A DNA stretch of 64,000 nt from Eubacteriales bacterium. GTDB taxonomy: Bacteria > Bacillota > Clostridia > Oscillospirales > CAG-272. Positions 11,145 to 44,680 of this stretch are shown piece by piece (position 1 is the first letter of the stretch; every line of letters begins with the position of its first letter). The notes beneath the pieces are model-generated. The model was given only the letters and a program-made list of their open reading frames with translations. It was not told the origin of the DNA and searched no databases. A program made the translations under genes and the position numbers. Where the stretch lies: NCBI GenBank assembly GCA_045631745.1, contig JAZQVI010000068.1, positions 852-64,851 of the forward strand, written 5' to 3'.

Positions 11145-13814
11145 TCAGTACCCTTTTTTACCCTTAACCTTCCTCCAGATCCATTTCCTCAAAATATCGA
11201 AAGGGAACACAAGTGATGCCATGAGCATCGTCACCCCCAGCTCTCTTGGAGTGAGCGGAACCGTTCGCAACACACTGCCGCCGATGTACACAAACAGAAT
11301 CTGTATTACCAATATCGCAACCATAATTCCCAGGAATACAGGGTTCTGCTTCAGCCCTGCTGAAAGCTTTAGTCGATCCGTTCTTGCATTGAAGCAGTTA
11401 AAGACCGACGCAAAAATGAACAATGCGAAGAATGCGGTGAGCAGATAGAGGTTGTTCTCATGGGGGCGAAATTGAGACGTGACGAGAGGGCATTTCAAAA
11501 ATAACAAACACAGCGCCACCGTAAATCCTCCAAGAACGGCAATCTCATCCACCATGTAGCCATTCAGAATTCCCGTTCCCCGTTTTTTCGGCTTTTCGTT
11601 CATGTATTCCGCCAGGGGTGCCTCTCCCGCAAACGCCAAGCCCCCGAGCGTATCCATGATGAGGTTGATCCAAAGCATCTGTACCACCGTAACAGGTGTA
11701 TCAACACCAAGGAAGGGACAGATCATGGTCACCCCTACCGCCGAAAAGTTCATGGTAAGCTGCAACGCAATAAATTTTCGGATGCTCTTAAAAATACTTC
11801 TTCCGTAAAGCACCGCCTTGACAATGGACGCTAAATTATTATCCAGTATTACGATATCCCCTGCATCCTTTGCGACCTGAGTACCGCCCCCCATTGAAAA
11901 TCCGATATCCGCGCGTCGGAGAGCGGGGGCATCATTGATCCCGTCTCCCGTCATACCGGTAACCAACTCCATCTCCTGCGCCACCCGAACCAATCGGCTC
12001 TTATCGGTCGGCAGCGCCCTTGCGACCACCGAAAGCCTTGGCAAAAGCTCCTTGAGCTGAACGTCCGAAAGCTTCGACAGCTCCTCTCCCGTCAGTGCCA
12101 CCGGAGTTTTGGCGGTTTGGATCCCGCACATTTGTGCAATCGCCGATGCTGTTTCCTTGTTATCCCCCGTAATCATAATGACCTGAATCCCCGCGCGATG
12201 CAGATCTGATACCGCACCAGGGGCTTCCCGACGGATGGGATCGGAAAGACATAGGACAGACACCAAAACAAGACCACCCCTTACCCTGTCTCGATGAGAG
12301 GCGGCAGGAATATCCTCGGCAGACAACGCGAGCAGCAAACACCGGTTTCCCCTTTTTGTTCTCTCTGACAGGGCACTCTCTATCTTCTTTTTTGAATATG
12401 CCCCCATACTTCCATCCGGATAGATCGCGCTTTGAACATACGGCAAAAGTTTCTCGGGAGCTCCCAGAAGAAAGGTCATGCTGTTTCTCCCCTTGTAGCT
12501 GACAGCTGCATACTTTCTCTCACTTTCAAAACGCAGTCTTGAAAACACGCGGTATCCTTCGAGGTCAGGAAGCGCAGCGATCCCCTCGAGAAGCGCACGA
12601 TCGGTTGCATTTCCGCCAATCGCACGTCCACCCTCTCCCATCATTGCCTCTCCTCCGCGAAGTCCAAGGGAGAGCAGCTCTGCAAAAAATCGTCCCCTTA
12701 AGAGAATGGACTCTGCCGTAGGGCAAACACCGCCATCTGCAGTCAGAACCTCGGTCAACTTCATTTTTCCTTCGGTCAGCGTGCCCGTTTTGTCTGTAAA
12801 CAGCAGATTCATGCTCCCCGCCGCCTCGATCCCGACCGGCTTTCTCACCAGCACATTGTCTCTGACCATTCTGCGGATATTTCCCGAAAGCACAACTGCA
12901 ATCATCATGGGAAGCCCCTCGGGAACGGCTACCACAATCACCGTCAAACCAAGCGTGAAGGCGTGAAAGAGCTTAGACAGGAGATACGGCGCATCCAAAA
13001 GCTTGATCCGAATGACCTCCCATCGCATTCCGCTATCCAAAAGGAACACATGGAACAAATATGCCAGCGTCACTAAAATCGCCGCAACATATCCCAGCGC
13101 GCTGATCTGTTTTGCAAGCTTGGCAAGACGGATCTTGAGGGGACTGTCTCTCTGCTCCATCTGCACCTCTCTTGAGATCTGTCCCAAAAAGGTTGCGTCG
13201 CCCACCGAGGTGACGCCCATCTCTCCCCCGCCTGCCGTTACGGTGCAACCCCGAAACAAGGCTGATGGGGAGGTTGGATCCCTTGAAACATTGTCAGACG
13301 GAAGCTTGCTCACCTCCCGACTTTCCCCCGTCATGGCAGATTGATCGCTGGCGAGAGCTCCCGCCAAAAGAAGTCCGTCCGCCGGGATCCGTTCTCCTGC
13401 GCAAAGCAGAACAATATCCCCAACCACAACCTCGCTCATGGGAATCTCGCACACCCGTCCCTCCCGACGAACGCGGCACACCACCTTTTCATTCTCTTTT
13501 GACAACTCCTCAAACGCCCGCTCGGAGGAACACTCCGACAAAGTAGAGATGAATGCCGCTAAAAAAACGGCAATGGCAATCCCAACCGTCTCCACCCAAT
13601 CCGCACCTCGAACGGCAAGAATCAGATTGACCGCCAGCGCTCCTAAAAGAATTCGAATAACGGGGTCGTTTAAATTCCCCAAAAACCGTTTCCAAAAGGA
13701 TTTTCCCTTCTGTTTTGATAACACGTTCCGTCCAAATCGACTTGCCGATGACTCAACCTCTTCCTCCGCCAAGCCCACTCGACGAAAATCCTCCGCCCTT
13801 TTGAATTCTGTCAT
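11145..13814 (-). CDS. P-type cation-transporting ATPase, P2 (Ca2+-ATPase-like) family
   Basis: Part of ORF 11145..13862; start ATG 13814 preceded by GGAGGGA. Motifs FTDKTGTLTEGKM, VPEGLP and MTGDGINDAPALRRADIG. Confidence 0.85.
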   Translation of the reverse strand: MTEFKRAEDFRRVGLAEEEVESSASRFGRNVLSKQKGKSFWKRFLGNLNDPVIRILLGALAVNLILAVRGADWVETVGIAIAVFLAAFISTLSECSSERAFEELSKENEKVVCRVRREGRVCEIPMSEVVVGDIVLLCAGERIPADGLLLAGALASDQSAMTGESREVSKLPSDNVSRDPTSPSALFRGCTVTAGGGEMGVTSVGDATFLGQISREVQMEQRDSPLKIRLAKLAKQISALGYVAAILVTLAYLFHVFLLDSGMRWEVIRIKLLDAPYLLSKLFHAFTLGLTVIVVAVPEGLPMMIAVVLSGNIRRMVRDNVLVRKPVGIEAAGSMNLLFTDKTGTLTEGKMKLTEVLTADGGVCPTAESILLRGRFFAELLSLGLRGGEAMMGEGGRAIGGNATDRALLEGIAALPDLEGYRVFSRLRFESERKYAAVSYKGRNSMTFLLGAPEKLLPYVQSAIYPDGSMGAYSKKKIESALSERTKRGNRCLLLALSAEDIPAASHRDRVRGGLVLVSVLCLSDPIRREAPGAVSDLHRAGIQVIMITGDNKETASAIAQMCGIQTAKTPVALTGEELSKLSDVQLKELLPRLSVVARALPTDKSRLVRVAQEMELVTGMTGDGINDAPALRRADIGFSMGGGTQVAKDAGDIVILDNNLASIVKAVLYGRSIFKSIRKFIALQLTMNFSAVGVTMICPFLGVDTPVTVVQMLWINLIMDTLGGLAFAGEAPLAEYMNEKPKKRGTGILNGYMVDEIAVLGGFTVALCLLFLKCPLVTSQFRPHENNLYLLTAFFALFIFASVFNCFNARTDRLKLSAGLKQNPVFLGIMVAILVIQILFVYIGGSVLRTVPLTPRELGVTMLMASLVFPFDILRKWIWRKVKGKKGY

Positions 13815-13885
13815 TTCCGTCCCTCCGCGCACTTGATTCATACCACTATATGAAAAAAACACCTTAAAAATACGGCGTGGGAGGA

Positions 13886-13918
13886 CAAAAAAAGGAACCG
13901 TAAAAAACGGTTCCTTAT
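13886..13918 (-). terminator. Intrinsic terminator after pfkA
   Basis: aaggaaccg / cggttcctt stem followed by TTTTTTT on the minus strand. Confidence 0.7.
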
Positions 13919-13937
13919 TTTTGAAATTCCTAAAATC

Positions 13938-15014
13938 TCAGAATGCCATATCATTTGCAACAGCATAGAGTCTCTTGATCTCGGCACGGCGCTTTTCTGC
14001 CATTTCCTCCATCGCCCGAACCTCTTCCTTTGTGAACTTGTCCAGGTCTCCTGCCTTGAGCTTGTTTTTATACATACGGTCTGCAATCAGAGCCCAGGAA
14101 ATATCCACGGGAGTTACCACGCCGTCCAGTTCACACATCACCGCGTTGCTCTTGCCCTCCACCAGCATCTCAACTGCCTTTACAGACATCTCTGCCGCCG
14201 TGACACGGTCGCGGACGGTAGGTCTGCCACCTCTGACGATGTGCGCCAAACGTGCAAACTTGGTCTCTACACCGGTGTTCTCGGCAATTCTCTTTGCAAG
14301 CGTCTCACCGTAAGGCGTTCCGTCGGGATTTCGCATACCCTCGGATACCATCACGATCATTCCGCGCTTACCAGACGCGCGAAGAGCACGAATTCTTTCA
14401 AATGCAGCCTCCTCATCAAACGGAACCTCGGGAATCGCCACCGCAGCGGCTCCCGATGCGATTGCCGCGTAGAGCGCAATCTGTCCGCAGTCGCGTCCCA
14501 TAACCTCTACAACGTTCAAACGTGCATGAGACTCACAGGTATCGCGCAGGCAGTCCACCATCTCCACGGTGGTATTGATTGCAGTATCCAATCCAATCGT
14601 GTAATCGGTTGCAGTGATGTCGTTGTCAATGGTTCCGGGAAGTCCGATCGAAGGGATTCCGTGCAGGGTCATATCGGTCGCGCCGCGGAAGGTTCCGTCG
14701 CCGCCGATACATACCAGCGCATCAATTCCGTTTTCACGGCAGACCTTGACCGCCTGCATAACACCGGCCTCCTCCTTGAATTCAGGGCAACGGCTGGAAT
14801 ACAGCATTGTACCGCCCAAGCCGATGGCAGTGCTCATTTTCTCGCAGGTGAGTTCAACGAATTCTCCGCGCATCAACCCCGTATATCCGCCAACAACGCC
14901 AACGACCTCAATTCCAAGAGACGTTGCCTTGCTCAAAACGGCCTTGATGCAAACGTTCATTCCGGGAGCATCTCCGCCGGACGTCAAAATTCCAATCTTT
15001 TTGAAACTTGCCAT
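13938..15014 (-). CDS. pfkA: ATP-dependent 6-phosphofructokinase
   Basis: MASFKKIGILTSGGDAPGMN, IGGDGTF and GLPGTIDNDI motifs. 358 aa. Confidence 0.93.
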   Translation of the reverse strand: MASFKKIGILTSGGDAPGMNVCIKAVLSKATSLGIEVVGVVGGYTGLMRGEFVELTCEKMSTAIGLGGTMLYSSRCPEFKEEAGVMQAVKVCRENGIDALVCIGGDGTFRGATDMTLHGIPSIGLPGTIDNDITATDYTIGLDTAINTTVEMVDCLRDTCESHARLNVVEVMGRDCGQIALYAAIASGAAAVAIPEVPFDEEAAFERIRALRASGKRGMIVMVSEGMRNPDGTPYGETLAKRIAENTGVETKFARLAHIVRGGRPTVRDRVTAAEMSVKAVEMLVEGKSNAVMCELDGVVTPVDISWALIADRMYKNKLKAGDLDKFTKEEVRAMEEMAEKRRAEIKRLYAVANDMAF

Positions 15015-24459: not shown

Positions 24460-27402
24460 TCACGGTTTCGGATCGAAACCAATTCCCCACTTGACAAAGG
24501 AATAATCCTCTCTGAACCGCTCGCAATATCCGTTCTTCCAACACTTCTCAAAGGTAAAGTTGTTCGGTCCGACAAAATGCGGTTCTGCAGTCATGCGGTG
24601 ATGCGGGCCGAACAAATTGCGATTGGAGAAGCAAAGGGTGAGTGTGATCGCGTTTTCTCCCTCGTGCAGATGGGGAGCAAGCTCAAAGGTATCCGAGAAG
24701 ATCTGGACGCCGAGATCCTTGCCGTTGATCTCCACTCCGCAGGTGGCAAACCGACCGCCGAGAGTAAGCGTCGTAGGATCTCCCGTGTGATAGGTAAAGG
24801 TCGCACTTGCTCGAACGCTGCCTCTGAAGAAAACAAATCCGTCACGGTTGAAATCGGTCAGATTGACCGTCTCCTTCGCTGCGTCCAGGAAGAACTCTCC
24901 CGCATTACGCCAGATACCGGGCTGATCCGATGTCCACGCCCCCTCGGAATACACTCTGAAATCCCCAAACAAATAGATGGGCTCGATCTCAGCGTCAAAG
25001 GTGAGACAGTTTCGGAGTGTTTCACTTCCGCCCCCATAGAGGACATCATAAACCTCTTGCCTCTGCGCGTAGTCAAAGGAAACAACCACGTCGTTCTCCC
25101 CTGCTTTAACAAAGGGAAGGATATCCGCTCCCAAAAAACGGGGATCAATCCGTCCATCCGATTCAAGCGCGACTGCCCTTCCGTTGACCGTCACCGTCAT
25201 CCCCTTGATCGGCTCAGCAACCAGCCGCAGACTGCTCGGAACGGCTTTCACCTTGAAGGAGTAGAGCAAATCGACCCTTCCCTCGAAGCGGTCGGTAAGA
25301 AGCTCATCCCGAATACGGCTCCAGGAATACCATTCACTGAACGCACTGCCATTGAGAGAAATCCTTGCGCGATCCATCAGCAACGCGTTTTCCGAGGTCT
25401 CCAGCAGGCGGAAGGTGTTTGGCAAGGAAATGGATCTCTGTTCCCTGCTTTTTTCAAAGGGCAAAAAATCTGCTTCGCATTCTACCAAAAGGCAGGATGC
25501 GGAATCCTCAAAATCATAAAGAACCGTCACCGATCCATCTGAATTTCGTGTTCCTCTGAGAGGACATAGCGACAGGGTGTCGGTGCGAAGTTCCATCAGC
25601 CCCTGACAGTTTTCCACGCAGATCTCGGTATTTCGGTATACATTCGGTGAGGTATTCGCCAAGAAAATAATTCTTCCCATCTCGCCTTTTCTAATCTGCA
25701 TATGCAAGGGAACGCCCGCGCCGTTGCTTGAAACAGTAACACCCGAGGCCTTTTTGAGATCCTCATAGGTGAGATTGGACTGCAAAAAGCTCAAGTCGGA
25801 GATCCGTCCGTCCACACGGCTCGGATGATCGCCCAATACACACACCTTGCCCCCTTGCGAAAGATACGTCCGCAAAAGAGCAACGGTAGAGGAATCCAGC
25901 GTCTCGCAATCGGGAATCACGACGTAACGGTAGGTGCATTTTCCAACGCGAATGCGATCTCCCTCTACCGATCCCATCTGCCCGAGAATCGTCTCGTCTC
26001 CAAAGTGGTAGGCGATCTGATCACTCGACAGCCGCTCCACCCAAGAAGCAAAGCTGCTTTCAAGCGCCTCCAATTTTTCTCTTGTCTGATTTTTGATAAA
26101 GTGGAGATATGCACTGTGCATGGGGTGAATAACCAGCACGTCGGCAAGCTCCTCTCCCTCCGAGAGTGCCGCGCCCAGACGCTGAAAATGGGTTTCAAAC
26201 TGTCGAAACTCGCGGTGCCACGGGCTGTGCTCCGAAAAATGATGGGGATAGTCGCGCTTTCTCTCGCCGCGCTCGGAATAGGCATACAAATGCTCACAAA
26301 GAAGATTTGCACCGCCCGCCATCTGCAATTCGGCAATTCGCTTGAGTTCTCTCGGAGAAACGTCCCAACCGCACGCGGCAAAGGTCTCTGTGAGAGCAAC
26401 CTTTTTGCCTGTCTGCGCACACACCGAGCCCAGCTGGCGCGCACCGCTGACGTTCTTGATACTCCGCCCGAGATAATCGATTCCCGGAATGTGCTGGTAG
26501 AGATAGAAGGGCATCACACCGCCGCAGCAGTGCATCTGATCGCTCAGACCCCATTCCTCGATCCCGTGCCCCGTGAGCTTAACCCCGTGGTCAGTGCACC
26601 AGTCGTAGATAGGCTTCATAAAGCCTTCGTAAAAGGAGCGGTGACAGTGTAGGTAATAATCGAAGCGAAATTCCTCCGCGCCCTTACAATCTATGAACAG
26701 GGCGGGGAGATTGTCTCGCACGTCATACCCGAACCGCTCGCGGAACGTGGTCAGAAAACAATCCGACCAGGGGGTACCGTTGCGGAAATATTGAGGCTCA
26801 TCGGTGAAAAAGCCCGGCATGACCGTTCCAAAATCCTCACCCAGCTCCCGGCGGTATCTCTCATGCGTCGCCTCAATGAAGCGATGCGTGACCGCAGGAT
26901 TCATGGTGTCCACGTAAGAGAAATCGCGTATGCGGCGAATGACGGTGTATTCCTTCGATCCGTCGGGCGCGCTCAATCGCACAGCCCCCTTGTCCGAGAT
27001 CGAATAGACACCAAGGATGTCCTCTCTCATCTCGGGAAATGCATCCGTCGTCTCACAGATCAAACCGCACGCATGGTTTTGGGGATCGCGAAGCAGCTCT
27101 CCTCCCGCAAATCCGGAGGGCCAGCCGTTTTCATCGTACGCCCACGCCTCCATGCCAAGCTTTTTTGCTTCATCCACACAAGCGCGTACAGCATCAAACC
27201 ATTCCTTCGACATATATTCCGTCTCAAGCCCACCTCTGGCATGCATGAAAAAGCCTCGCATCCCCAGTTCGTGCATATCCCGAATCTGGCGGCGGAGATC
27301 CGCCTCGCAAAGACGGTCGTTCCAGCTCCAAAAGGGAATGCTGCCATGAACGGGCGCATTCTTTTCTATTTTTTCAAGCAGATAATCAATTTTTTGACTC
27401 AT
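24460..27402 (-). CDS. Large cytoplasmic glycoside hydrolase (TIM-barrel N-domain plus beta-sandwich C-domains; possibly GH106/alpha-L-rhamnosidase-like, family uncertain)
   Basis: 980 aa, no signal peptide. The N-terminus PFWSWNDRL..RQIRDMHELGMRGFFMHARGGLETEYMSKEW...AKKLGMEAWAYDENGWPSGFAGG matches a pattern I associate with uncharacterised or GH106-type hydrolases. Confidence 0.55.
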   Translation of the reverse strand: MSQKIDYLLEKIEKNAPVHGSIPFWSWNDRLCEADLRRQIRDMHELGMRGFFMHARGGLETEYMSKEWFDAVRACVDEAKKLGMEAWAYDENGWPSGFAGGELLRDPQNHACGLICETTDAFPEMREDILGVYSISDKGAVRLSAPDGSKEYTVIRRIRDFSYVDTMNPAVTHRFIEATHERYRRELGEDFGTVMPGFFTDEPQYFRNGTPWSDCFLTTFRERFGYDVRDNLPALFIDCKGAEEFRFDYYLHCHRSFYEGFMKPIYDWCTDHGVKLTGHGIEEWGLSDQMHCCGGVMPFYLYQHIPGIDYLGRSIKNVSGARQLGSVCAQTGKKVALTETFAACGWDVSPRELKRIAELQMAGGANLLCEHLYAYSERGERKRDYPHHFSEHSPWHREFRQFETHFQRLGAALSEGEELADVLVIHPMHSAYLHFIKNQTREKLEALESSFASWVERLSSDQIAYHFGDETILGQMGSVEGDRIRVGKCTYRYVVIPDCETLDSSTVALLRTYLSQGGKVCVLGDHPSRVDGRISDLSFLQSNLTYEDLKKASGVTVSSNGAGVPLHMQIRKGEMGRIIFLANTSPNVYRNTEICVENCQGLMELRTDTLSLCPLRGTRNSDGSVTVLYDFEDSASCLLVECEADFLPFEKSREQRSISLPNTFRLLETSENALLMDRARISLNGSAFSEWYSWSRIRDELLTDRFEGRVDLLYSFKVKAVPSSLRLVAEPIKGMTVTVNGRAVALESDGRIDPRFLGADILPFVKAGENDVVVSFDYAQRQEVYDVLYGGGSETLRNCLTFDAEIEPIYLFGDFRVYSEGAWTSDQPGIWRNAGEFFLDAAKETVNLTDFNRDGFVFFRGSVRASATFTYHTGDPTTLTLGGRFATCGVEINGKDLGVQIFSDTFELAPHLHEGENAITLTLCFSNRNLFGPHHRMTAEPHFVGPNNFTFEKCWKNGYCERFREDYSFVKWGIGFDPKP

Positions 27403-27452
27403 TTCGTGCCTCCGTAGAACTCATTTAGGCTTCGTACAAGTTTTACTACCCC

Positions 27453-27481
27453 AGTATAGCATAATTTCATAGAAAAATCAA
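27453..27481 (-). promoter_or_regulatory. sigma-A type promoter of the 980-aa hydrolase gene
   Basis: Minus strand TTGATT, 17-nt spacer, TATACT. Confidence 0.5.
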
Positions 27482-27492
27482 TGATGTAATAA

Positions 27493-27530
27493 CAAAAACC
27501 GCCTCCGCAGAAAAAATTCTGCAGAGACGG
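27493..27530 (-). terminator. Terminator after the second P-type ATPase
   Basis: ccgtctctgcag / ctgcggaggcgg stem (with G-U pairs) followed by TTTTT on the minus strand. Confidence 0.6.
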
Positions 27531-27544
27531 TCGTTCTGTAATTT

Positions 27545-30193
27545 TTACGCCTTTTGCGTCTTGCGCTGGATCAGCTTCACGATCTCGACGATCGGAATCA
27601 CCAAAACGCCAAGTCCTGCCGCGATCGCATACTCGGGCAGAGCTACGTGCGTAAATCCAAACGCATTTGCGATGAATTCGACCTCGCAAACCAGCGTGGT
27701 TGCAAGCAGAGAGCCTACAGCTGCAAGATAGAGCATCTTGTTGTGTGTTTTCAGTCCAAACAGGCTTGCTCTTTGCGAACGCATATTCAAGCTGTGGAAG
27801 ATCTCTGCCATGGACATGGTCAAGAATGCCATGGTCATACCCTCTGCACTGTCGAGAGAATTGATGATGTTCCATGTGCCGTATTCAAAATGATGACCGA
27901 TTGCATAAGAAATGATAACCAGAATAGAAACCATCAAGCCCTGATAGATCACATCAAATCCCATGCCGCCCGAGAAGATACCCGACTTGGCATCGCGGGG
28001 CTTACGTTGCATGATATCGGTCTCCGCCTTCTCCATACCCAAAGCAAGCGCAGGAAGGCTATCGGTTACAAGGTTGATCCAAAGCAAGTGCACGGGCTTG
28101 AGAATGGTGAAGCCCATCAGGGTTGCGGTAAAGATACTGATAACCTCGCTCATGTTGGATCCCAGCAGGAACTGGATCGCCTTACGAATGTTATCGTAGA
28201 TTCTTCTTCCCTCTTCTACTGCGCCAACGATCGTTGCAAAGTTATCGTCAGCCAGCACCATGTCAGCAACGTTTTTGGTAACATCGGTGCCTGTAATTCC
28301 CATGCCGACACCAATATCGGCAGATTTGATGGAGGGCGCATCGTTGACGCCGTCTCCGGTCATCGCGGTGACCTTTCCGATCTTTCTCCACGCATTGACG
28401 ATTCTTGTCTTATGCTCGGGCTGAACGCGGGCGTAAACGCTGATCTCCTGGAACTGCGCCTCAAACTCCTCGTCGCTCATTTCATTGAGCATGGATCCCG
28501 TGATCGCACGCGTGGTCTCGGTCATAATGCCAAGCTCCTTCGCGATTGCAATCGCGGTATCAATGTGGTCACCCGTGATCATAATGGGGCGGATTCCTGC
28601 AGACGTACACTGCACAATCGCATCCTTTACCTCGGGACGAACGGGGTCGATCATACCGCAAAGTCCGACGAAGCAAAGCTCGGTCTCGAGTGCTTCCGGC
28701 TCAAAACTGGTAGGCTTATCCGTGTATACGCGCTGTGCACAAGCAAGCACACGGAGCGCCTTGTCCGCCATGTTCTTGTTTGCTGCCAGAATCTCTGCGG
28801 AGTACTCTGCCGTCATAGGAACAGGTGCACCATCCTTGAGATAGTGCGTGCAACGCCCAATGATCACGTCGGGCGCACCCTTGGTAAACTGTACGAAGGA
28901 GCCGTTGTCGTCGTGGACAGTGGACATCATCTTTCTGCCCGAATCAAAGGGCGCCTCACCAACACGCACAAGCTTTACCTTCAATTCATTCTTGTCAAGA
29001 CCGAGCTTGTGCGCCCACGTAACCAGTGCAGCCTCCGTAGGCTCACCCGTCACGTTTGCATCGCCATCAATCTCCGCGTCGCTGCAAAGCGCCATCGCAG
29101 TTGCGAGCTTCGTGTCAGACTCGCCGAAGAAATCAACGACGGTCATCTTGTTCTGCGTCAGCGTTCCGGTCTTATCCGAGCAAATGATCTGCGCGCATCC
29201 CAAGGTCTCAACCGCGGTCAGCTTGCGGATGATCGCATTTCTCTTAGACATATTCGTAACACCAATGGAGAGAACCACGGTAACGACTGCAGCAAGTCCC
29301 TCGGGAATCGCCGCCACCGCCAACGAAACTGCGATCATGAAGGAATCCAGTGCAAATTCAAAGTTCAGATCTCCCGAATGGCGGATCAGCTGAACACCAA
29401 ACACAACCACGCAAATACCCAAAACGAGCCAGGTCAGAATTTTGGAAAGCTGTCCCAGCTTAATCTGCAGAGGGGTCTGTCCCTCCTCTGCCTGCGCCAA
29501 CGCATCCGCAATCTTACCCATTTCGGTATCCATGCCCGTCGCCGTAACAACCACGATTCCACGTCCGTATACGACGGTCGATCCCATGTATACCATGTTC
29601 TTGCGGTCTCCAAGCGGCACATCCTTGGCACCATCCGAAAGTTCGATCACATCGGCATGCTTGGTAACAGGTACAGATTCACCTGTCAGAGCTGCCTCCT
29701 CGATCTTGAGGCTCGCATTTTCCAAAATTCTTGCATCGGCAGGTACTGCATCTCCTGCCTCCAGGAGAACGATGTCTCCCACAACCAGATCCTCGCTGTG
29801 AACGATCTGCACCTTGCCGTCGCGTAAAACCTTTGAGGTCGCCGCCGACATTTCCTGCAGGGCTTCGATCGCCTTTTCCGCCTTGCTCTCCTGATAAACG
29901 CCAAGGATGGCGTTGATCAGAACAACGGAGAGAATGATGATGACGTCAACAAAGCCTTCCCCCTCCTTCACCGCGAGCACACCGCTGATCGCTGCCGCAA
30001 CGAGCAAAATAATGATCATGGGGTCTGCAAGCTGCTCAAGGAATCTACGCAAAATAGATTTTCCCTTCGCCGCCGCCAAACGGTTCTTGCCATTGGCTTC
30101 CAGTCGCTTGCCTGCCTCTTCGGACGTAAGGCCCTCGCGAGTGGCGTTCAGATGCCCGAGAACCTCGTTTGATTCTGTACAATAGTACTTCAT
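27545..30193 (-). CDS. Calcium-translocating P-type ATPase (P2A, YloB/LMCA1-like)
   Basis: 882 aa. Motifs CSDKTGTLTQNKM, IPEGL, TGDGVNDAPSIKSADIG. N-terminus LTSEEAGKRLEANGKNRL. Confidence 0.88.
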   Translation of the reverse strand: MKYYCTESNEVLGHLNATREGLTSEEAGKRLEANGKNRLAAAKGKSILRRFLEQLADPMIIILLVAAAISGVLAVKEGEGFVDVIIILSVVLINAILGVYQESKAEKAIEALQEMSAATSKVLRDGKVQIVHSEDLVVGDIVLLEAGDAVPADARILENASLKIEEAALTGESVPVTKHADVIELSDGAKDVPLGDRKNMVYMGSTVVYGRGIVVVTATGMDTEMGKIADALAQAEEGQTPLQIKLGQLSKILTWLVLGICVVVFGVQLIRHSGDLNFEFALDSFMIAVSLAVAAIPEGLAAVVTVVLSIGVTNMSKRNAIIRKLTAVETLGCAQIICSDKTGTLTQNKMTVVDFFGESDTKLATAMALCSDAEIDGDANVTGEPTEAALVTWAHKLGLDKNELKVKLVRVGEAPFDSGRKMMSTVHDDNGSFVQFTKGAPDVIIGRCTHYLKDGAPVPMTAEYSAEILAANKNMADKALRVLACAQRVYTDKPTSFEPEALETELCFVGLCGMIDPVRPEVKDAIVQCTSAGIRPIMITGDHIDTAIAIAKELGIMTETTRAITGSMLNEMSDEEFEAQFQEISVYARVQPEHKTRIVNAWRKIGKVTAMTGDGVNDAPSIKSADIGVGMGITGTDVTKNVADMVLADDNFATIVGAVEEGRRIYDNIRKAIQFLLGSNMSEVISIFTATLMGFTILKPVHLLWINLVTDSLPALALGMEKAETDIMQRKPRDAKSGIFSGGMGFDVIYQGLMVSILVIISYAIGHHFEYGTWNIINSLDSAEGMTMAFLTMSMAEIFHSLNMRSQRASLFGLKTHNKMLYLAAVGSLLATTLVCEVEFIANAFGFTHVALPEYAIAAGLGVLVIPIVEIVKLIQRKTQKA

Positions 30194-30441
30194 AAAACCG
30201 CTCCTTTTTTCTTTTTTCGATCAGAGAATAGACCTAAGCCGCGCAAAATATACGCAAAAAGGCTTATGTATCTCCAACGGATACATAAGCCTTTTTTATC
30301 CAACCTACAAGACGAATGTATCACCATTGGGAAATACATGAGTCTCGCAATTTAAAACAAGCCAGACCGCACAGGCCAGGATGTTGACTTGCTACGCATA
30401 TCAATACGCTTGCTACTCCCTCATTCGGAATTTGCTTTATG
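30194..30441 (-). promoter_or_regulatory. ~240-nt structured 5' leader of the Ca-ATPase gene with an internal intrinsic terminator (candidate riboswitch or attenuator)
   Basis: Lies between a consensus promoter (30442-30470) and the RBS AAGGAG. Contains GGGAGUAGC (30420-30412), a hairpin at 30346-30308, and the terminator at 30297-30256. See findings. Confidence 0.45.
30256..30297. terminator. Strong 14-17 bp hairpin with T runs on both strands
   Basis: aaaaaggcttatgtatc tccaacg gatacataagccttttt. Confidence 0.75.
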
Positions 30442-30470
30442 ATTATAACACAGTTTCCTGTATTTGTCAA
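30442..30470 (-). promoter_or_regulatory. Consensus sigma-A promoter immediately after the acyl-CoA ligase stop codon
   Basis: Minus strand TTGACA (30470-30465), 17-nt spacer, TATAAT (30447-30442). Confidence 0.6.
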
Positions 30471-30484
30471 TAGATTTTGGGATT

Positions 30485-32185
30485 TTATAAAATCCTCTCC
30501 CGAAATGCGCAAAAGCTCTCCTCGGCAAGCCCCGCGCGACGGATCCTACCCGTCGGTGTTTTGGGAAATTCCGTGCTACGGATCACAAACGTCTCAATTT
30601 GCTTGTAGGCCGCAAGCGATCCGTTCACCTCCGCCAGTACGCGTTGGATCGCATTTTCGATCTGTGCAGACGAGATGCTTTGGCCATATACCTTTGTCAA
30701 AGCCTCGACATCGGGATAAATCAACGCCACCACATGAGTATTCTTGTTTTTTTCATCGCGGTAGCCCACCACAACGCTTTCCTTTATATAAGAGGAGCGA
30801 CAGAGAGCAACCTCCAGCTCTTCCGGAAAGATCTTTTTTCCATCTCCCGATTCGATCACATTCTTTTTGCTCCCCGTGACATACAAAAATCCGTCACCAT
30901 CGAGATAACCCATGTCTCCCGTGTAAAACCATCCGTCTCGGATCACCTCGCGCGTCTGTTCAGGCATTTTATAATAGCCCGCCATCACGCCGTCTCCGCG
31001 GTATCGGATCTCCCCAACGCCGTCCTCCTGCATCTCTGCAATATCCAAAAGCGCGTTCGGGGTACAAAGTCCGACCGAATCATCTCTGAAGCAGGTATCC
31101 CGATTCAACGCAATCATAGGAGAACATTCCGTAATCCCATAGCCCTGCAAAACGGCAATTCCCAATTCACGAAAACCCTTTGCGGTTTCTGCCGCCACAA
31201 GAGAGCCGCCCGAGATCATCAACCGCAGCTTTCCGCCAAAGCTGTTGTGGATAGCGGAGAAGGCCTTCTTTTTAGCGGTTATTGCGGCCTTCTGATTCGG
31301 AATGGAATTGGTCACGGCAATCATACGCCGAACCGGCTCTGCCGCACGGCGATTCTCAAGATGTTTCCACAGCCGCTCATACATTCTGTCGAGCATGGCG
31401 GGCACACAAATCATAACGGTAGGAGAAATCTCCTTCATCTCCTTGCCAAGGTGCTGCAATCCTTCGGAGAAGGCAATCGTACAGCCTCTCGACATGGGAG
31501 AGAGAAATCCACAGGTGCACTCATAGGCATGATGCAAAGGGAGCACCGACAAGAAAACGTCCTTCTCGTCCGTGTAAATCATCCGGGAGACCTCTGATGC
31601 GTTAAAGCAGAGATTGCGGTGCGAGAGCATCACGCCGCGCACATCCTCCGATGTGCCATGCGAAAACAGAATCGCACATGGCTCTCTGCTCTCGATCTTG
31701 GCATCAAAGTAGCTTCTGTCCCCTCCGCGAACCCGGCGGTTTCCCAACTGGATCCATTTTTTGAGATCGGAGAAGGAAATTTTCTTCACACGCTCTCCCA
31801 ATGCATCGAATTTCTTGAGCAGGGGGTCCGCGCAAATCACGGCATCAGCCTCGCACAGGTCGACAATCTGTACCGCATCCTTTTCCCCCATCTCCTCGTC
31901 CAAGGGGACAACCGTTCCGACGCCGCAGACAACCGCCATGTAAGCCACCGCCCACGCATAGCAATTTTTACCTGCAAGAACAATCTTCTTCCCCTGCAAT
32001 CCCATGCCGAGAAGTGCCGTTCCCAGTCCGCACACATCCTGATAGTATGCCTCATAGCTGACCGAACGGTACCTTCCCCTCGTCTTTTGCAGAAACAACG
32101 TCTTTTCTCCAAATGTCCTCGCGCTTTCCCGAAGCATTTGTCTCAAGTCGTCATAACATTCAGCTGAATAGTTCCGATATTTCAT
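30485..32185 (-). CDS. AMP-dependent synthetase/ligase (long-chain fatty-acid-CoA ligase-like)
   Basis: 566 aa. ILFSHGTSEDVRGVMLSHRNL (AMP-binding motif region), GYGITE, YTGDMGYLDGDGFLYVTGSKKNVI. Confidence 0.8.
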   Translation of the reverse strand: MKYRNYSAECYDDLRQMLRESARTFGEKTLFLQKTRGRYRSVSYEAYYQDVCGLGTALLGMGLQGKKIVLAGKNCYAWAVAYMAVVCGVGTVVPLDEEMGEKDAVQIVDLCEADAVICADPLLKKFDALGERVKKISFSDLKKWIQLGNRRVRGGDRSYFDAKIESREPCAILFSHGTSEDVRGVMLSHRNLCFNASEVSRMIYTDEKDVFLSVLPLHHAYECTCGFLSPMSRGCTIAFSEGLQHLGKEMKEISPTVMICVPAMLDRMYERLWKHLENRRAAEPVRRMIAVTNSIPNQKAAITAKKKAFSAIHNSFGGKLRLMISGGSLVAAETAKGFRELGIAVLQGYGITECSPMIALNRDTCFRDDSVGLCTPNALLDIAEMQEDGVGEIRYRGDGVMAGYYKMPEQTREVIRDGWFYTGDMGYLDGDGFLYVTGSKKNVIESGDGKKIFPEELEVALCRSSYIKESVVVGYRDEKNKNTHVVALIYPDVEALTKVYGQSISSAQIENAIQRVLAEVNGSLAAYKQIETFVIRSTEFPKTPTGRIRRAGLAEESFCAFRERIL

Positions 32186-32272: not shown

Positions 32273-33442
32273 TCAGCAGCGGTCAATCGTGAGCACCACA
32301 AAATAGGAAGGATCCAAACGGCTGACGGCATCCGCCACCGCTCGGCGCACCTCATCCTCCGAAAGCTTACATTCAAAGGGAACCGCCACATCAAAAATCA
32401 GATTGGTGTGCGTATTTCCCCGCACGAACCTAAAATCATGGATGTTCATACCCTCTCCCAGCTCTGCAACCGCCGCCGCAACTCGCCCGCGAAGGACATT
32501 GACCTCCTCATCATCGGTCACAATGGGATCCATGTGAATGGTGGCATAAATTCCGCACTCACGGCGAAGCTTCTTTTCCAGATTATCCACCATGTCGTGA
32601 GATTCAAAGATATCCTTGGATCCGTCCACCTCAACGTGAAGGGCAACAATCATGCGCCCGGGACCGTAGTTATGTACCTCAAGATCGTGAATTCCCAAAA
32701 CGCCCTCGCATTGCTCTGCTATATCGGCAATACGCTGCACAACCTCCTCAGAGGGGGCGCCTCCCAGAATGGAGTCCTTTGCCTCCAAAAGAATCTTAAA
32801 TCCGGAAACGAGGATCAAAACCGCAACGCCGACGCCCACGTATGCATCCAAATTAAGCGTGAGCGAAGGAACGAGAAGCATAATAAGCGTAGTAACGAGC
32901 ACCGCGCCTGTAGAAAGCACGTCAGAGAGGGAATCCGCCGCGGTCGCCCTCATGACAGAGGAATCAATACGTTTTCCAATCCTGGTATTAAAATACGCCA
33001 TCCATAGTTTGACAAGAACCGATCCGCCGAGAATCCCCACCGAGACCCAGCTCCGCGAGGGCGGCGCGGGTGTGATGATCTTTTGTATGGATTCCACGAG
33101 CAAATCCAAACCGATGTGAAGAACCAGAAAGGACACGATCAGAGTTGCCACGTATTCAAATCTTCCATGCCCAAAGGGATGTTCCCGATCGGCAGGCTTC
33201 GCGGAAACGCGAAAGGAAACAAAGGAAAGCATCTGCGAGCCGGCATCGGAAAGGTTGTTGATCGCATCCGCGCGAATGGCAACCGATCCTGTGAAAACGC
33301 CGATTGCAAATTTTGCACCGAAGAGGATCACGTTCAGGATCAGCCCCAGCACGCTTACCAGCGTACCGTAAGCACGCCGCACCTCCCCATCGGATGTATT
33401 TTTGTAGTCTTTAATCAATAATCTCGAAAGCAGTTCGACCAT
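32273..33442 (-). CDS. Cation diffusion facilitator (CDF) family metal efflux transporter
   Basis: 389 aa. AIRADAINNLSDAGS, HPFGHGRFE, and a C-terminal cytoplasmic domain. Confidence 0.8.
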   Translation of the reverse strand: MVELLSRLLIKDYKNTSDGEVRRAYGTLVSVLGLILNVILFGAKFAIGVFTGSVAIRADAINNLSDAGSQMLSFVSFRVSAKPADREHPFGHGRFEYVATLIVSFLVLHIGLDLLVESIQKIITPAPPSRSWVSVGILGGSVLVKLWMAYFNTRIGKRIDSSVMRATAADSLSDVLSTGAVLVTTLIMLLVPSLTLNLDAYVGVGVAVLILVSGFKILLEAKDSILGGAPSEEVVQRIADIAEQCEGVLGIHDLEVHNYGPGRMIVALHVEVDGSKDIFESHDMVDNLEKKLRRECGIYATIHMDPIVTDDEEVNVLRGRVAAAVAELGEGMNIHDFRFVRGNTHTNLIFDVAVPFECKLSEDEVRRAVADAVSRLDPSYFVVLTIDRC

Positions 33443-44399: not shown

Positions 44400-44680
44400 A
44401 AAGATTGAAACCGACGAGAAAGCGGAGTAGCAACCGAGAGGTTTTGTGCAGAGAGCCACAGGCGGTGGGATTGTGGTCAAGGCGCGGCTGTGAATGGGCT
44501 TTTGAGGGCGAACCGAACGTCATCAGACCAGTAGGCTTCGACGGGGCGCGCTCCCGTTATCCACGGCGCCGCATATCATGGTATGCGCAAGGAGAATGCA
44601 AGTTATTCAAATTGCAATTCGGGTGGTACCGCAGGAATTTCGACCCCTGCCCCGTATTGGGGCAGGGGTCTGTCTTTTTC
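44400..44680 (+). promoter_or_regulatory. T-box riboswitch leader, probable Trp specifier (UGG)
   Basis: Stem I elements (GAGAAAGCGGAGTAG, GCAGAGAG, GGTGGGA). Candidate specifier GAA-UGG-G at 44492-44498. T-box sequence AATTCGGGTGGTACCGC at 44616-44632. Terminator gacccctgcccc/ggggcaggggtc plus U-tract at 44642-44679. Confidence 0.8.

Follow-up and report, generated by a model that had tools for sequence, protein, structure and literature searches.

What governs a P-type ATPase gene whose start codon lies about 240 nucleotides (nt) beyond its promoter and behind an intrinsic terminator? The question is raised by a 64,000-nt stretch of Eubacteriales DNA (assembly GCA_045631745.1, contig JAZQVI010000068.1, positions 852 to 64,851; hereafter the window), in which an unannotated leader at 30470-30194 precedes the gene of a Ca2+-type ATPase. 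A sequence-only reading of the window had described mutually exclusive hairpins in this leader and suspected a riboswitch, perhaps of the yybP-ykoY (Mn2+) class; it did not assert the class, as the four-helix architecture could not be traced. Our analysis supports the suspicion. We consider it very probable, at roughly 85%, that the leader represents the yybP-ykoY riboswitch family in its P4-less, three-way-junction form and acts as a transcriptional ON switch: the L1, P2 and P3/L3 elements align to the Rfam model of the family (RF00080), and the predicted aptamer covaries among orthologous leaders. Four helices could not be traced because this form has three, with a UUAAA linker in place of P4. 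All element coordinates refer to the minus strand unless stated otherwise, and those of the features are collected in Table 1.

Architecture of the predicted aptamer

The L1 region of the leader (GAGGGAGUAGC at 30422-30412) aligns to positions 14-22 of the RF00080 model, and GGGAGUAG is unchanged in 52 of 52 orthologous leaders. The P3 arm, which aligns to the consensus GUCAACAUACU...UGGC, holds the UCAACA metal-site core, of which CAACA is invariant among the orthologous leaders. The L3 of the window (GUCAACAUCCU) and that of the consensus (GUCAACAUACU) form an equal 7-nt bulge with flanking GUCA/UGGC pairs. No P4 helix was found in the window: a mere 5 nt (UUAAA) lead from P3.1 to P1.2, and RNAalifold predicts no helix there.

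The sequence-only reading had pointed to GGGAGUAGC and to two UAGCAAG strings as reminiscent of the conserved core of the family. These strings are present; however, they do not constitute one repeated core motif. The first UAGCAAG comprises the end of L1 and the 5' strand of P1.2, and the second is the 5' strand of P3.1.

Conservation and covariation in orthologous leaders

With the ATPase protein, 80 orthologous loci were retrieved at 72-95% identity, nearly all of them from uncultured Clostridia of the animal and human gut; the closest is a Eubacteriales metagenome-assembled genome (95%). About 60 of the loci carry GGAGTAG, followed roughly 30 nt on by TCAACA, 150-230 nt 5' of the start codon. 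A covariance model, R1, was built from the three-way-junction structure on a MAFFT alignment of 52 leaders. R1 detects the P4-less aptamer in 58 of the 80 loci (44-92 bits), with six hits lying outside the training set. The window itself scores 87.6 bits (E = 1e-20) at 30431-30332, which is the single match to R1 in the whole window. In 46 of the 58 P4-less aptamers the linker reads UNAAA (UUAAA in 29, UGAAA in 10, UCAAA in 4 and UAAAA in 3).

Covariation across 52 to 65 orthologous leaders supports the predicted P1.1, P1.2, P2 and P3 helices. In the plain MAFFT alignment of the 52 leaders, 84% of the cells are paired, against 25-41% with slid partners, and the covariation score is 0.38 against 0.18 after shuffling, with 0 of 500 shuffles as high. 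The R1-based alignment has 90% of its cells paired and changes on both sides in 26 of 29 pairs. P1.1 covaries (columns 8-12 with 111-115), occurring as AU, GU and GC types and as CGCGAG/CUCGCG in loci L022 and L056. In P1.2, columns 20 and 105 pair as CG (31 sequences) or UA (19), and columns 21 and 104 as AU (23), CG (17), GC (6) or UA (4). Both sides change in all five pairs of P2, where 89% of the cells are paired in the R1-based alignment, and P3.1 is 98.5% paired and covarying, one of its basal pairs being AU in 17, GC in 15 and UA in 11. RNAalifold recovered P1.1, P1.2 and P3.1 de novo and predicted no P4. The comparison of orthologous leaders proposed in the sequence-only reading thus found conservation as well as covariation, the lack of which had been named there as counting against a riboswitch.

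In two of the P4-less aptamers, at L053 (Gallintestinimicrobium propionicum, 2209-2355) and L075 (2274-2440), P2 is enlarged by insertions of about 50-70 nt, as is P3.2 in L075; both still score 62-66 bits under R1. The cultured Sporobacter termitidis DSM 10068 (L070) is also among the carriers of the leader.

Seven orthologous ATPase loci have the four-way-junction form and reach just 20-33 bits under R1. This Mn-type leader stands at L003, L005, L042, L058, L060 and L066, and more weakly at L061; the first six have the usual ...UAGCAAGACUUUU 3' end. The same six loci carry a T-box-like element 3' of the ATPase gene, at 53-70 bits against a gathering score of 93.

The leader under Rfam models

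At gathering thresholds, Rfam gave no RF00080 match in the window, nor in the 26 orthologous loci scanned. Under permissive settings, a partial match of 17.8 bits against the gathering score of 45 was obtained for the leader, spanning GGGAGUAGC (L1), the P2 hairpin and the P3 arm with an GUCAACAU-type bulge. The scan that the sequence-only reading had suggested therefore detected the expected family, only under its threshold, and the structure of the model accounts for the shortfall. As seen on the leader of L058 (2297-2400), positions 1-25 of RF00080 in Rfam 15 are unpaired, P2, P3 and P4 follow with a long variable insert, and the model ends right after P4; it contains neither P1 pairs nor the 3' strand of L1 with its conserved AGAC. 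Because the model requires P4 and has no P1, a P4-less leader loses one helix of score. Four-way-junction-like leaders of orthologues, used as a control, are also sub-threshold (38.6 bits for L058 and 26.1 bits for L060), and these two are the only ones of the six such loci among the 26 scanned that match RF00080 at E up to 0.1. Since the control leaders fail too and the structure of the model explains the failure, we do not take the Rfam miss as absence of the aptamer.

Even with E allowed up to 10, the region 30150-30520 gave no match to M-box, NiCo or T-box. Matches to Thr-leader, Phe-leader, sRNA and miRNA families were rejected; they align the terminator palindrome only, and some are on the wrong strand.

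Comparison with characterised riboswitches

We considered whether a P4-less Mn aptamer is an undescribed form and rejected this, since Martin et al. (2019, NAR, PMC6649816) already describe it. In the S. pneumoniae mgtA riboswitch, which belongs to the yybP-ykoY family, P4 is replaced by an invariant UNAAA; AGA in the 3' strand of L1 is invariant, as are a C and an A of L3, and the aptamer is followed by a terminator (PMC6649816). The gene encodes a PII-type Ca2+/Mn2+ ATPase and adjoins the CDF gene mntE, and export of Mn2+ (plus Ca2+) by pneumococcal MgtA was shown experimentally (PMC6649816). The published features of the mgtA subtype recur in the window, namely the UUAAA linker, AGA in L1, C and A in L3, the terminator and the PII-type ATPase. 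Set by the published description, the two leaders are alike in P1.1-L1-P1.2, in P2, in P3.1-L3-P3.2 and in UNAAA for P4. They are also alike in a transcriptional ON logic via a terminator, in an ATPase of the LMCA1 kind and in a CDF efflux gene nearby. In contrast, the pneumococcal leader has a single terminator right after the aptamer, whereas the window has a two-hairpin relay; the C46-G83 receptor pair of the pneumococcal RNA corresponds to A-U in the window; and the window comes from an uncultured gut bacterium of the Eubacteriales/Oscillospirales.

With the four-way members of the family (L. lactis yoaB, X. oryzae as well as E. coli mntP), the window shares GGGGAGUAG in the 5' strand of L1, a sarcin-ricin-like loop that holds the A-minor adenosine, AGA in its 3' strand and the GUCAACAU bulge of L3. 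It also shares the P1.1 switch helix with its 3' strand in the expression platform, the association with metal-efflux genes, which in the family include those of MntP, TerC and P-type ATPases, and, as predicted, the ON logic for metal exporters. It departs from them in the junction, as P2 is present and P4 absent where they have a four-way junction with both, and in its RF00080 score, which is below the 45 bits of the gathering threshold. Another three-way-junction member is E. coli alx, which keeps the L1-L3 metal core (PMC12934788, PMC12153347). The alx RNA lacks P2, having an L2 capping loop, and keeps P4, whereas the window keeps P2 and lacks P4; alx is translational and pH-coupled, whereas the leader of the window would be transcriptional.

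Thus, the leader is a new family member in the already characterised mgtA-type form. The relay platform and the failure of the Rfam model are refinements, not new biology.

The pump and the probable signal

The regulated ATPase is a type IIA P-type ATPase. Its top NCBIfam matches are the SERCA and PMR1 types, both under their equivalog cutoffs, and its best solved relative is Listeria LMCA1 (full length, E = 3e-214), which has been named as an analogue of MgtA (PMC6649816). A CDF-family cation-efflux gene (32273-33442) lies two genes upstream of the ATPase gene, with an MntE-like score of 120.9 bits against an equivalog cutoff of 500. In three orthologous loci, an open reading frame (ORF) of 194 amino acids (aa) of the MntP family follows the P4-less aptamer and precedes the ATPase gene (L007 1903-2487, L008 516-1100 and L016 1874-2458; E about 1e-25, under the equivalog cutoff), which suggests a riboswitch-controlled two-exporter operon.

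The window contains a second ATPase gene, at 11145-13862, whose product passes the NCBIfam curated cutoff for PMCA-type Ca2+ pumps (559.7 against 507 bits). The sequence-only reading had noted this paralogue at 11145-13814, a span that falls short of its true extent, and had rightly seen no comparable leader before it: R1 finds no riboswitch leader there, and only a terminator-like hairpin after the preceding gene (AAGGAACCG...CGGUUCCUUUUUUU) lies upstream (~13885-13940). The invariant residues of L1 and L3 are those forming the Mn2+ site in solved structures; the metal-coordinating residues of L3 are A41 in L. lactis and C49/A50 in S. pneumoniae (the latter PMC6649816). The invariant metal-site residues, the MntP-family context and the separate leaderless PMCA-type pump together speak for Mn2+ as the signal and for export of Mn2+ (plus Ca2+).

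The same aptamer might instead respond to Ca2+, or to Ca2+ and Mn2+ jointly. The P4-less clade of gut Clostridia, with A-U in place of the consensus C-G receptor pair and with its relay, would then be tuned to Ca2+ or to the integration of both ions, and a Ca2+-type pump would be under a natural riboswitch responsive to calcium. Although the P4-less mgtA aptamer of S. pneumoniae has a Kd of 1.7 uM for Ca2+ against 54 uM for Mn2+ in vitro, read-through in vitro and induction in vivo follow Mn2+ and barely Ca2+ (PMC6649816). The A-U that replaces the consensus C-G receptor pair in the clade could retune the site; however, no variation occurs here in the L3 adenosine whose N7 makes the soft contact that Mn2+ prefers. 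Likewise, the regulated ATPase is nearest to the Ca2+ pump LMCA1, but the window also encodes a distinct PMCA-type Ca2+ pump with a score above its curated cutoff, and the P4-less aptamer precedes an MntP-family gene at L007, L008 and L016. We therefore regard a calcium signal as unlikely and favour Mn2+.

Expression platform and proposed switching

The four complementary segments of the sequence-only reading are found in the leader. Segments 1 (30339-30334), 3 (30286-30280) and 4 (30272-30266) are exactly where it had placed them, and segment 2 (GAUACAU) is at 30322-30316, not 30323-30317. Hairpin 1, formed by segments 1 and 2, is also present as claimed, with its end at 30309 and not 30308, and the terminator hairpin of segments 3 and 4 was borne out. 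The 5' arm of hairpin 1 contains the 3' strands of L1 and P1.1, and hairpin 1 excludes the closed aptamer because these strands are common to both. In constrained folding, the unconstrained leader forms hairpin 1 and the terminator; when the aptamer is imposed on a transcript that stops short of segment 4, the fold consists of the aptamer and the 2:3 antiterminator. A global minimum-energy fold pairing GGGAGUAG with CUAUUCUC 3' of the terminator was discarded as spurious, as it clashes with the covarying P1.1 and P1.2.

From these alternatives the following switch can be proposed. The promoter would start the transcript about 12 nt ahead of the aptamer. At low metal, hairpin 1 would form, the terminator would form after it and transcription would end near 30256. 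When Mn2+ is high, L1 would dock with L3, stabilising P1.1 and holding segment 1, and the freed segment 2 would pair with the emerging segment 3 as an antiterminator. The terminator would thereby be pre-empted and RNA polymerase would continue into the ATPase gene, whose product would then export Mn2+ and probably also Ca2+.

Two platform designs occur among the orthologues, assigned with a strict U-tract rule, as a laxer rule misclassified loci. About 28 orthologues, including the window, have a relay, consisting of a hairpin on the P1.1 3' strand without a U-tract, a spacer and a separate terminator. About 26 have the classical arrangement, a single direct terminator whose 5' arm is AGAC plus the P1.1 3' strand. 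Both designs engage the P1.1 3' strand and therefore both predict a metal ON switch. We did not find a relay (anti-antiterminator) platform described for the yybP-ykoY family in the searchable literature, which is a weak negative. Nor did that literature yield an account of this clade's leaders falling below the Rfam threshold.

The relay depends on the 2:3 pairing, and it is conceivable, though quite unlikely, that the riboswitch is real and this pairing non-functional; hairpin 1, as a pause site or weak terminator, would then be the one regulated element, and the second hairpin would either terminate constitutively with some leakage or end the transcript of the upstream gene. Hairpin 1 is indeed positionally homologous to the direct terminator of the type I orthologues, but it lacks a U-tract (GUCUUGUAGG). 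The strong terminator wins at equilibrium even with a closed aptamer; however, the pump gene would be silent behind a 17-bp terminator that acted constitutively, the promoter-like site downstream being weak and overlapping.

Against a non-functional pairing also stands the 2:3 duplex energy, calculated for the loop and 3' arm of hairpin 1 against the 5' arm and loop of the terminator at 23 relay-type loci. In the window it is -13.5 kcal/mol, against -5.3 +/- 2.2 kcal/mol for shuffles (z = -3.7). Over the 23 loci the matched mean is -12.9 kcal/mol against -7.5 kcal/mol for cross-locus combinations, and 0 of 5000 permutations reach the matched mean. The complementarity is thus kept far above the cross-locus controls at loci of divergent sequence, since the pairing sequences differ by locus, as in GCUGUAC/GUACAGC and AGCUAUAC/GUAUAGCU. 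Judged from these pairings, the design of the platform is conserved, not one particular sequence, which supports the mutually exclusive 1:2, 2:3 and 3:4 hairpins of the sequence-only reading.

The transcription unit

Read along the minus strand, the unit follows the stop codon of an acyl-CoA ligase gene and consists, in order, of the promoter, the leader of ~240 nt, the terminator, the AAGGAG ribosome binding site (RBS) and the ATG of the ATPase gene. The promoter that the sequence-only reading had placed at 30470-30442, just past the ligase stop codon, agrees with the consensus at all 12 positions and carries a TG extension; a transcription start near 30436-30434 is expected from it. Its distance to the ATPase start codon was also given correctly. 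That reading had seen no second promoter between the terminator and the RBS, and the sole promoter-like site 3' of the terminator is TGGAGA-18-TATATT, a weak match (9 of 12) that overlaps the terminator. The core stem of the terminator has -17.5 kcal/mol, and the fold of the leader is more stable than that of its shuffles (z = -5.2), with 0 of 200 equally stable. In 36 of 53 P4-less leaders, a perfect TTGACA lies 17-18 nt from a -10 hexamer with five or more of its six consensus bases, and this promoter stands 12-27 nt 5' of GGAGUAG. The upstream neighbours vary among loci, with tRNA genes at L013 and L014 and a regulator gene at L007. As these neighbours differ and the promoter is conserved beside the aptamer, the unit appears to travel with the ATPase gene and not with the acyl-CoA ligase gene.

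These observations bear on the idea that there is no riboswitch, the hairpin at 30296-30256 ending the ligase transcript and the ATPase gene being transcribed from a separate downstream promoter. There is no terminator from the ligase stop codon (30485) to this hairpin, where ligase transcripts would either end or read through, and the weak 9 of 12 site could be invoked as the promoter. However, the unit of promoter, aptamer, platform, RBS and ATPase gene is kept in 58 loci despite the varied upstream neighbours, the consensus promoter lies directly 5' of the aptamer in the 36 leaders, and the aptamer covaries. This makes the idea very unlikely, and the riboswitch reading stands.

A ribosome-mediated leader-peptide attenuator can be dismissed. 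The 49-codon ORF at 30339-30190 does begin with ATG, overlaps segments 1 to 4 and is accompanied by weak Thr-leader and Phe-leader matches. However, its ATG falls within the P1.1 3' strand and has no Shine-Dalgarno sequence before it, and conservation follows compensating RNA helices, not codons. The two matches, on the opposite (+) strand, score 26 and 17.5 bits, below their gathering scores of 55, and cover the terminator palindrome only.

Weight and meaning of the assignment

Several points weigh against the riboswitch assignment as we give it. Under RF00080 the leader is a sub-threshold partial match. P1.1 in the window has just 5 bp, the extended pairs that are common in orthologues being mismatched here. 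The pair 30386/30360 (columns 50 and 86 of alignment A1) is A-U where the consensus has C-G directly 5' of GUCAAC, and this C-G pair is the A-minor receptor for the L1 adenosine (PMC6649816). A-U at this position is also found in 43 of 52 relatives, and the neighbouring pair is G-C in 39 of 52. Mn2+ as the putative effector follows from family membership and gene context, and the likeness to S. pneumoniae mgtA from the published description. Finally, even with the aptamer enforced, the minimum-energy fold of the full-length leader retains the terminator, and hairpin 1 can still arise in truncated form. Since thermodynamics favours the terminator in the complete leader, the ON state would have to be reached kinetically, during transcription.

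Our analysis assigns a function to an unannotated leader of 240 nt and implies that a "calcium-type" ATPase is manganese-induced; on this analysis, the pump is probably a failsafe exporter of Mn2+ (and Ca2+), like pneumococcal MgtA. The annotation of the pump would change accordingly in many uncultured gut Clostridia. It also exposes an annotation gap, as 26 of 26 scanned leaders, P4-less and four-way, are under the Rfam threshold and R1 finds the P4-less ones at 44-92 bits. One aptamer on two platforms with equal ON logic offers a natural comparison of platform design, a modest point that establishes no new principle. Overall, the leader is a sound result of an ordinary kind, missed by standard annotation.

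Table 1. Positions of the predicted riboswitch elements and of the flanking features in the window.
Feature	Position	Strand	Description
Aptamer, yybP-ykoY Mn2+ family, three-way junction (P4-less), predicted	30424-30338	-	From the P1.1 5' strand through the P1.1 3' strand
P1.1 5' strand AUGAG	30424-30420	-	Pairs with CUCAU 30342-30338; switch helix
L1 5' strand GGAGUA	30419-30414	-	Inside conserved GGGAGUAGC; invariant in 52/52 orthologous leaders; aligns to RF00080 consensus GGGAGUAGC
P1.2 5' strand GCAA (of GUAGCAAG)	30413-30410	-	Pairs with UUGC 30350-30347
P2 hairpin GCGUA-UUGAUA-UGCGU	30409-30394	-	Aligns to RF00080 P2
P3 arm	30393-30356	-	P3.1 AGCAAGUCA / UGGCUUGUU; L3 bulge ACAUCCU 30384-30378; P3.2 hairpin 30377-30365
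UUAAA linker in P4 position	30355-30351	-	Between the P3.1 3' strand (CUUGUU) and P1.2
P1.2 3' strand UUGC, then L1 3' strand GAGA	30350-30347, then 30346-30343	-	NAGA in 58/58 aptamers; AGAC invariant
Hairpin 1 (segments 1:2), putative anti-antiterminator	30346-30309	-	GAGACUCAUGUAUUUCC-caau-GGUGAUACAUUCGUCUU; in the unconstrained minimum-energy fold
Alternative antiterminator (segments 2:3), predicted	30329-30275	-	CAAUGG..AUACAU..GUC (30329-30309) with GGC..AUGUAUCCGUUG (30291-30275)
Intrinsic terminator (segments 3:4)	30296-30256	-	AAAAAGGCUUAUGUAUCC-guug-GAGAUACAUAAGCCUUUUU; 17 pairs and U-tract
Sigma-70-type promoter	30470-30442	-	-35 TTGACA 30470-30465; 17-nt spacer; extended -10 TGtTATAAT; -10 hexamer 30447-30442
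Regulated gene	30206-27545	-	RBS AAGGAG 30206-30201 and P-type ATPase coding sequence 30193-27545; ATG 30193; 882 aa
Upstream acyl-CoA ligase ORF	30485-32185	-	Promoter begins 15 nt past its stop codon

Further observations

An ORF of 158 aa at 27399-27875 overlaps the 3' end of the ATPase coding sequence, has no NCBIfam match and is probably not a gene. Among the orthologous loci, L006 has a cobalamin riboswitch at 2010-2219 on its (-) strand, just 5' of the Mn-type leader and on the opposite strand to it (31.8 against a gathering score of 31.5 bits). The window's sole Rfam match at gathering level is a T-box leader at 44405-44657 on the (+) strand (RF00230, 94.5 against 93 bits).

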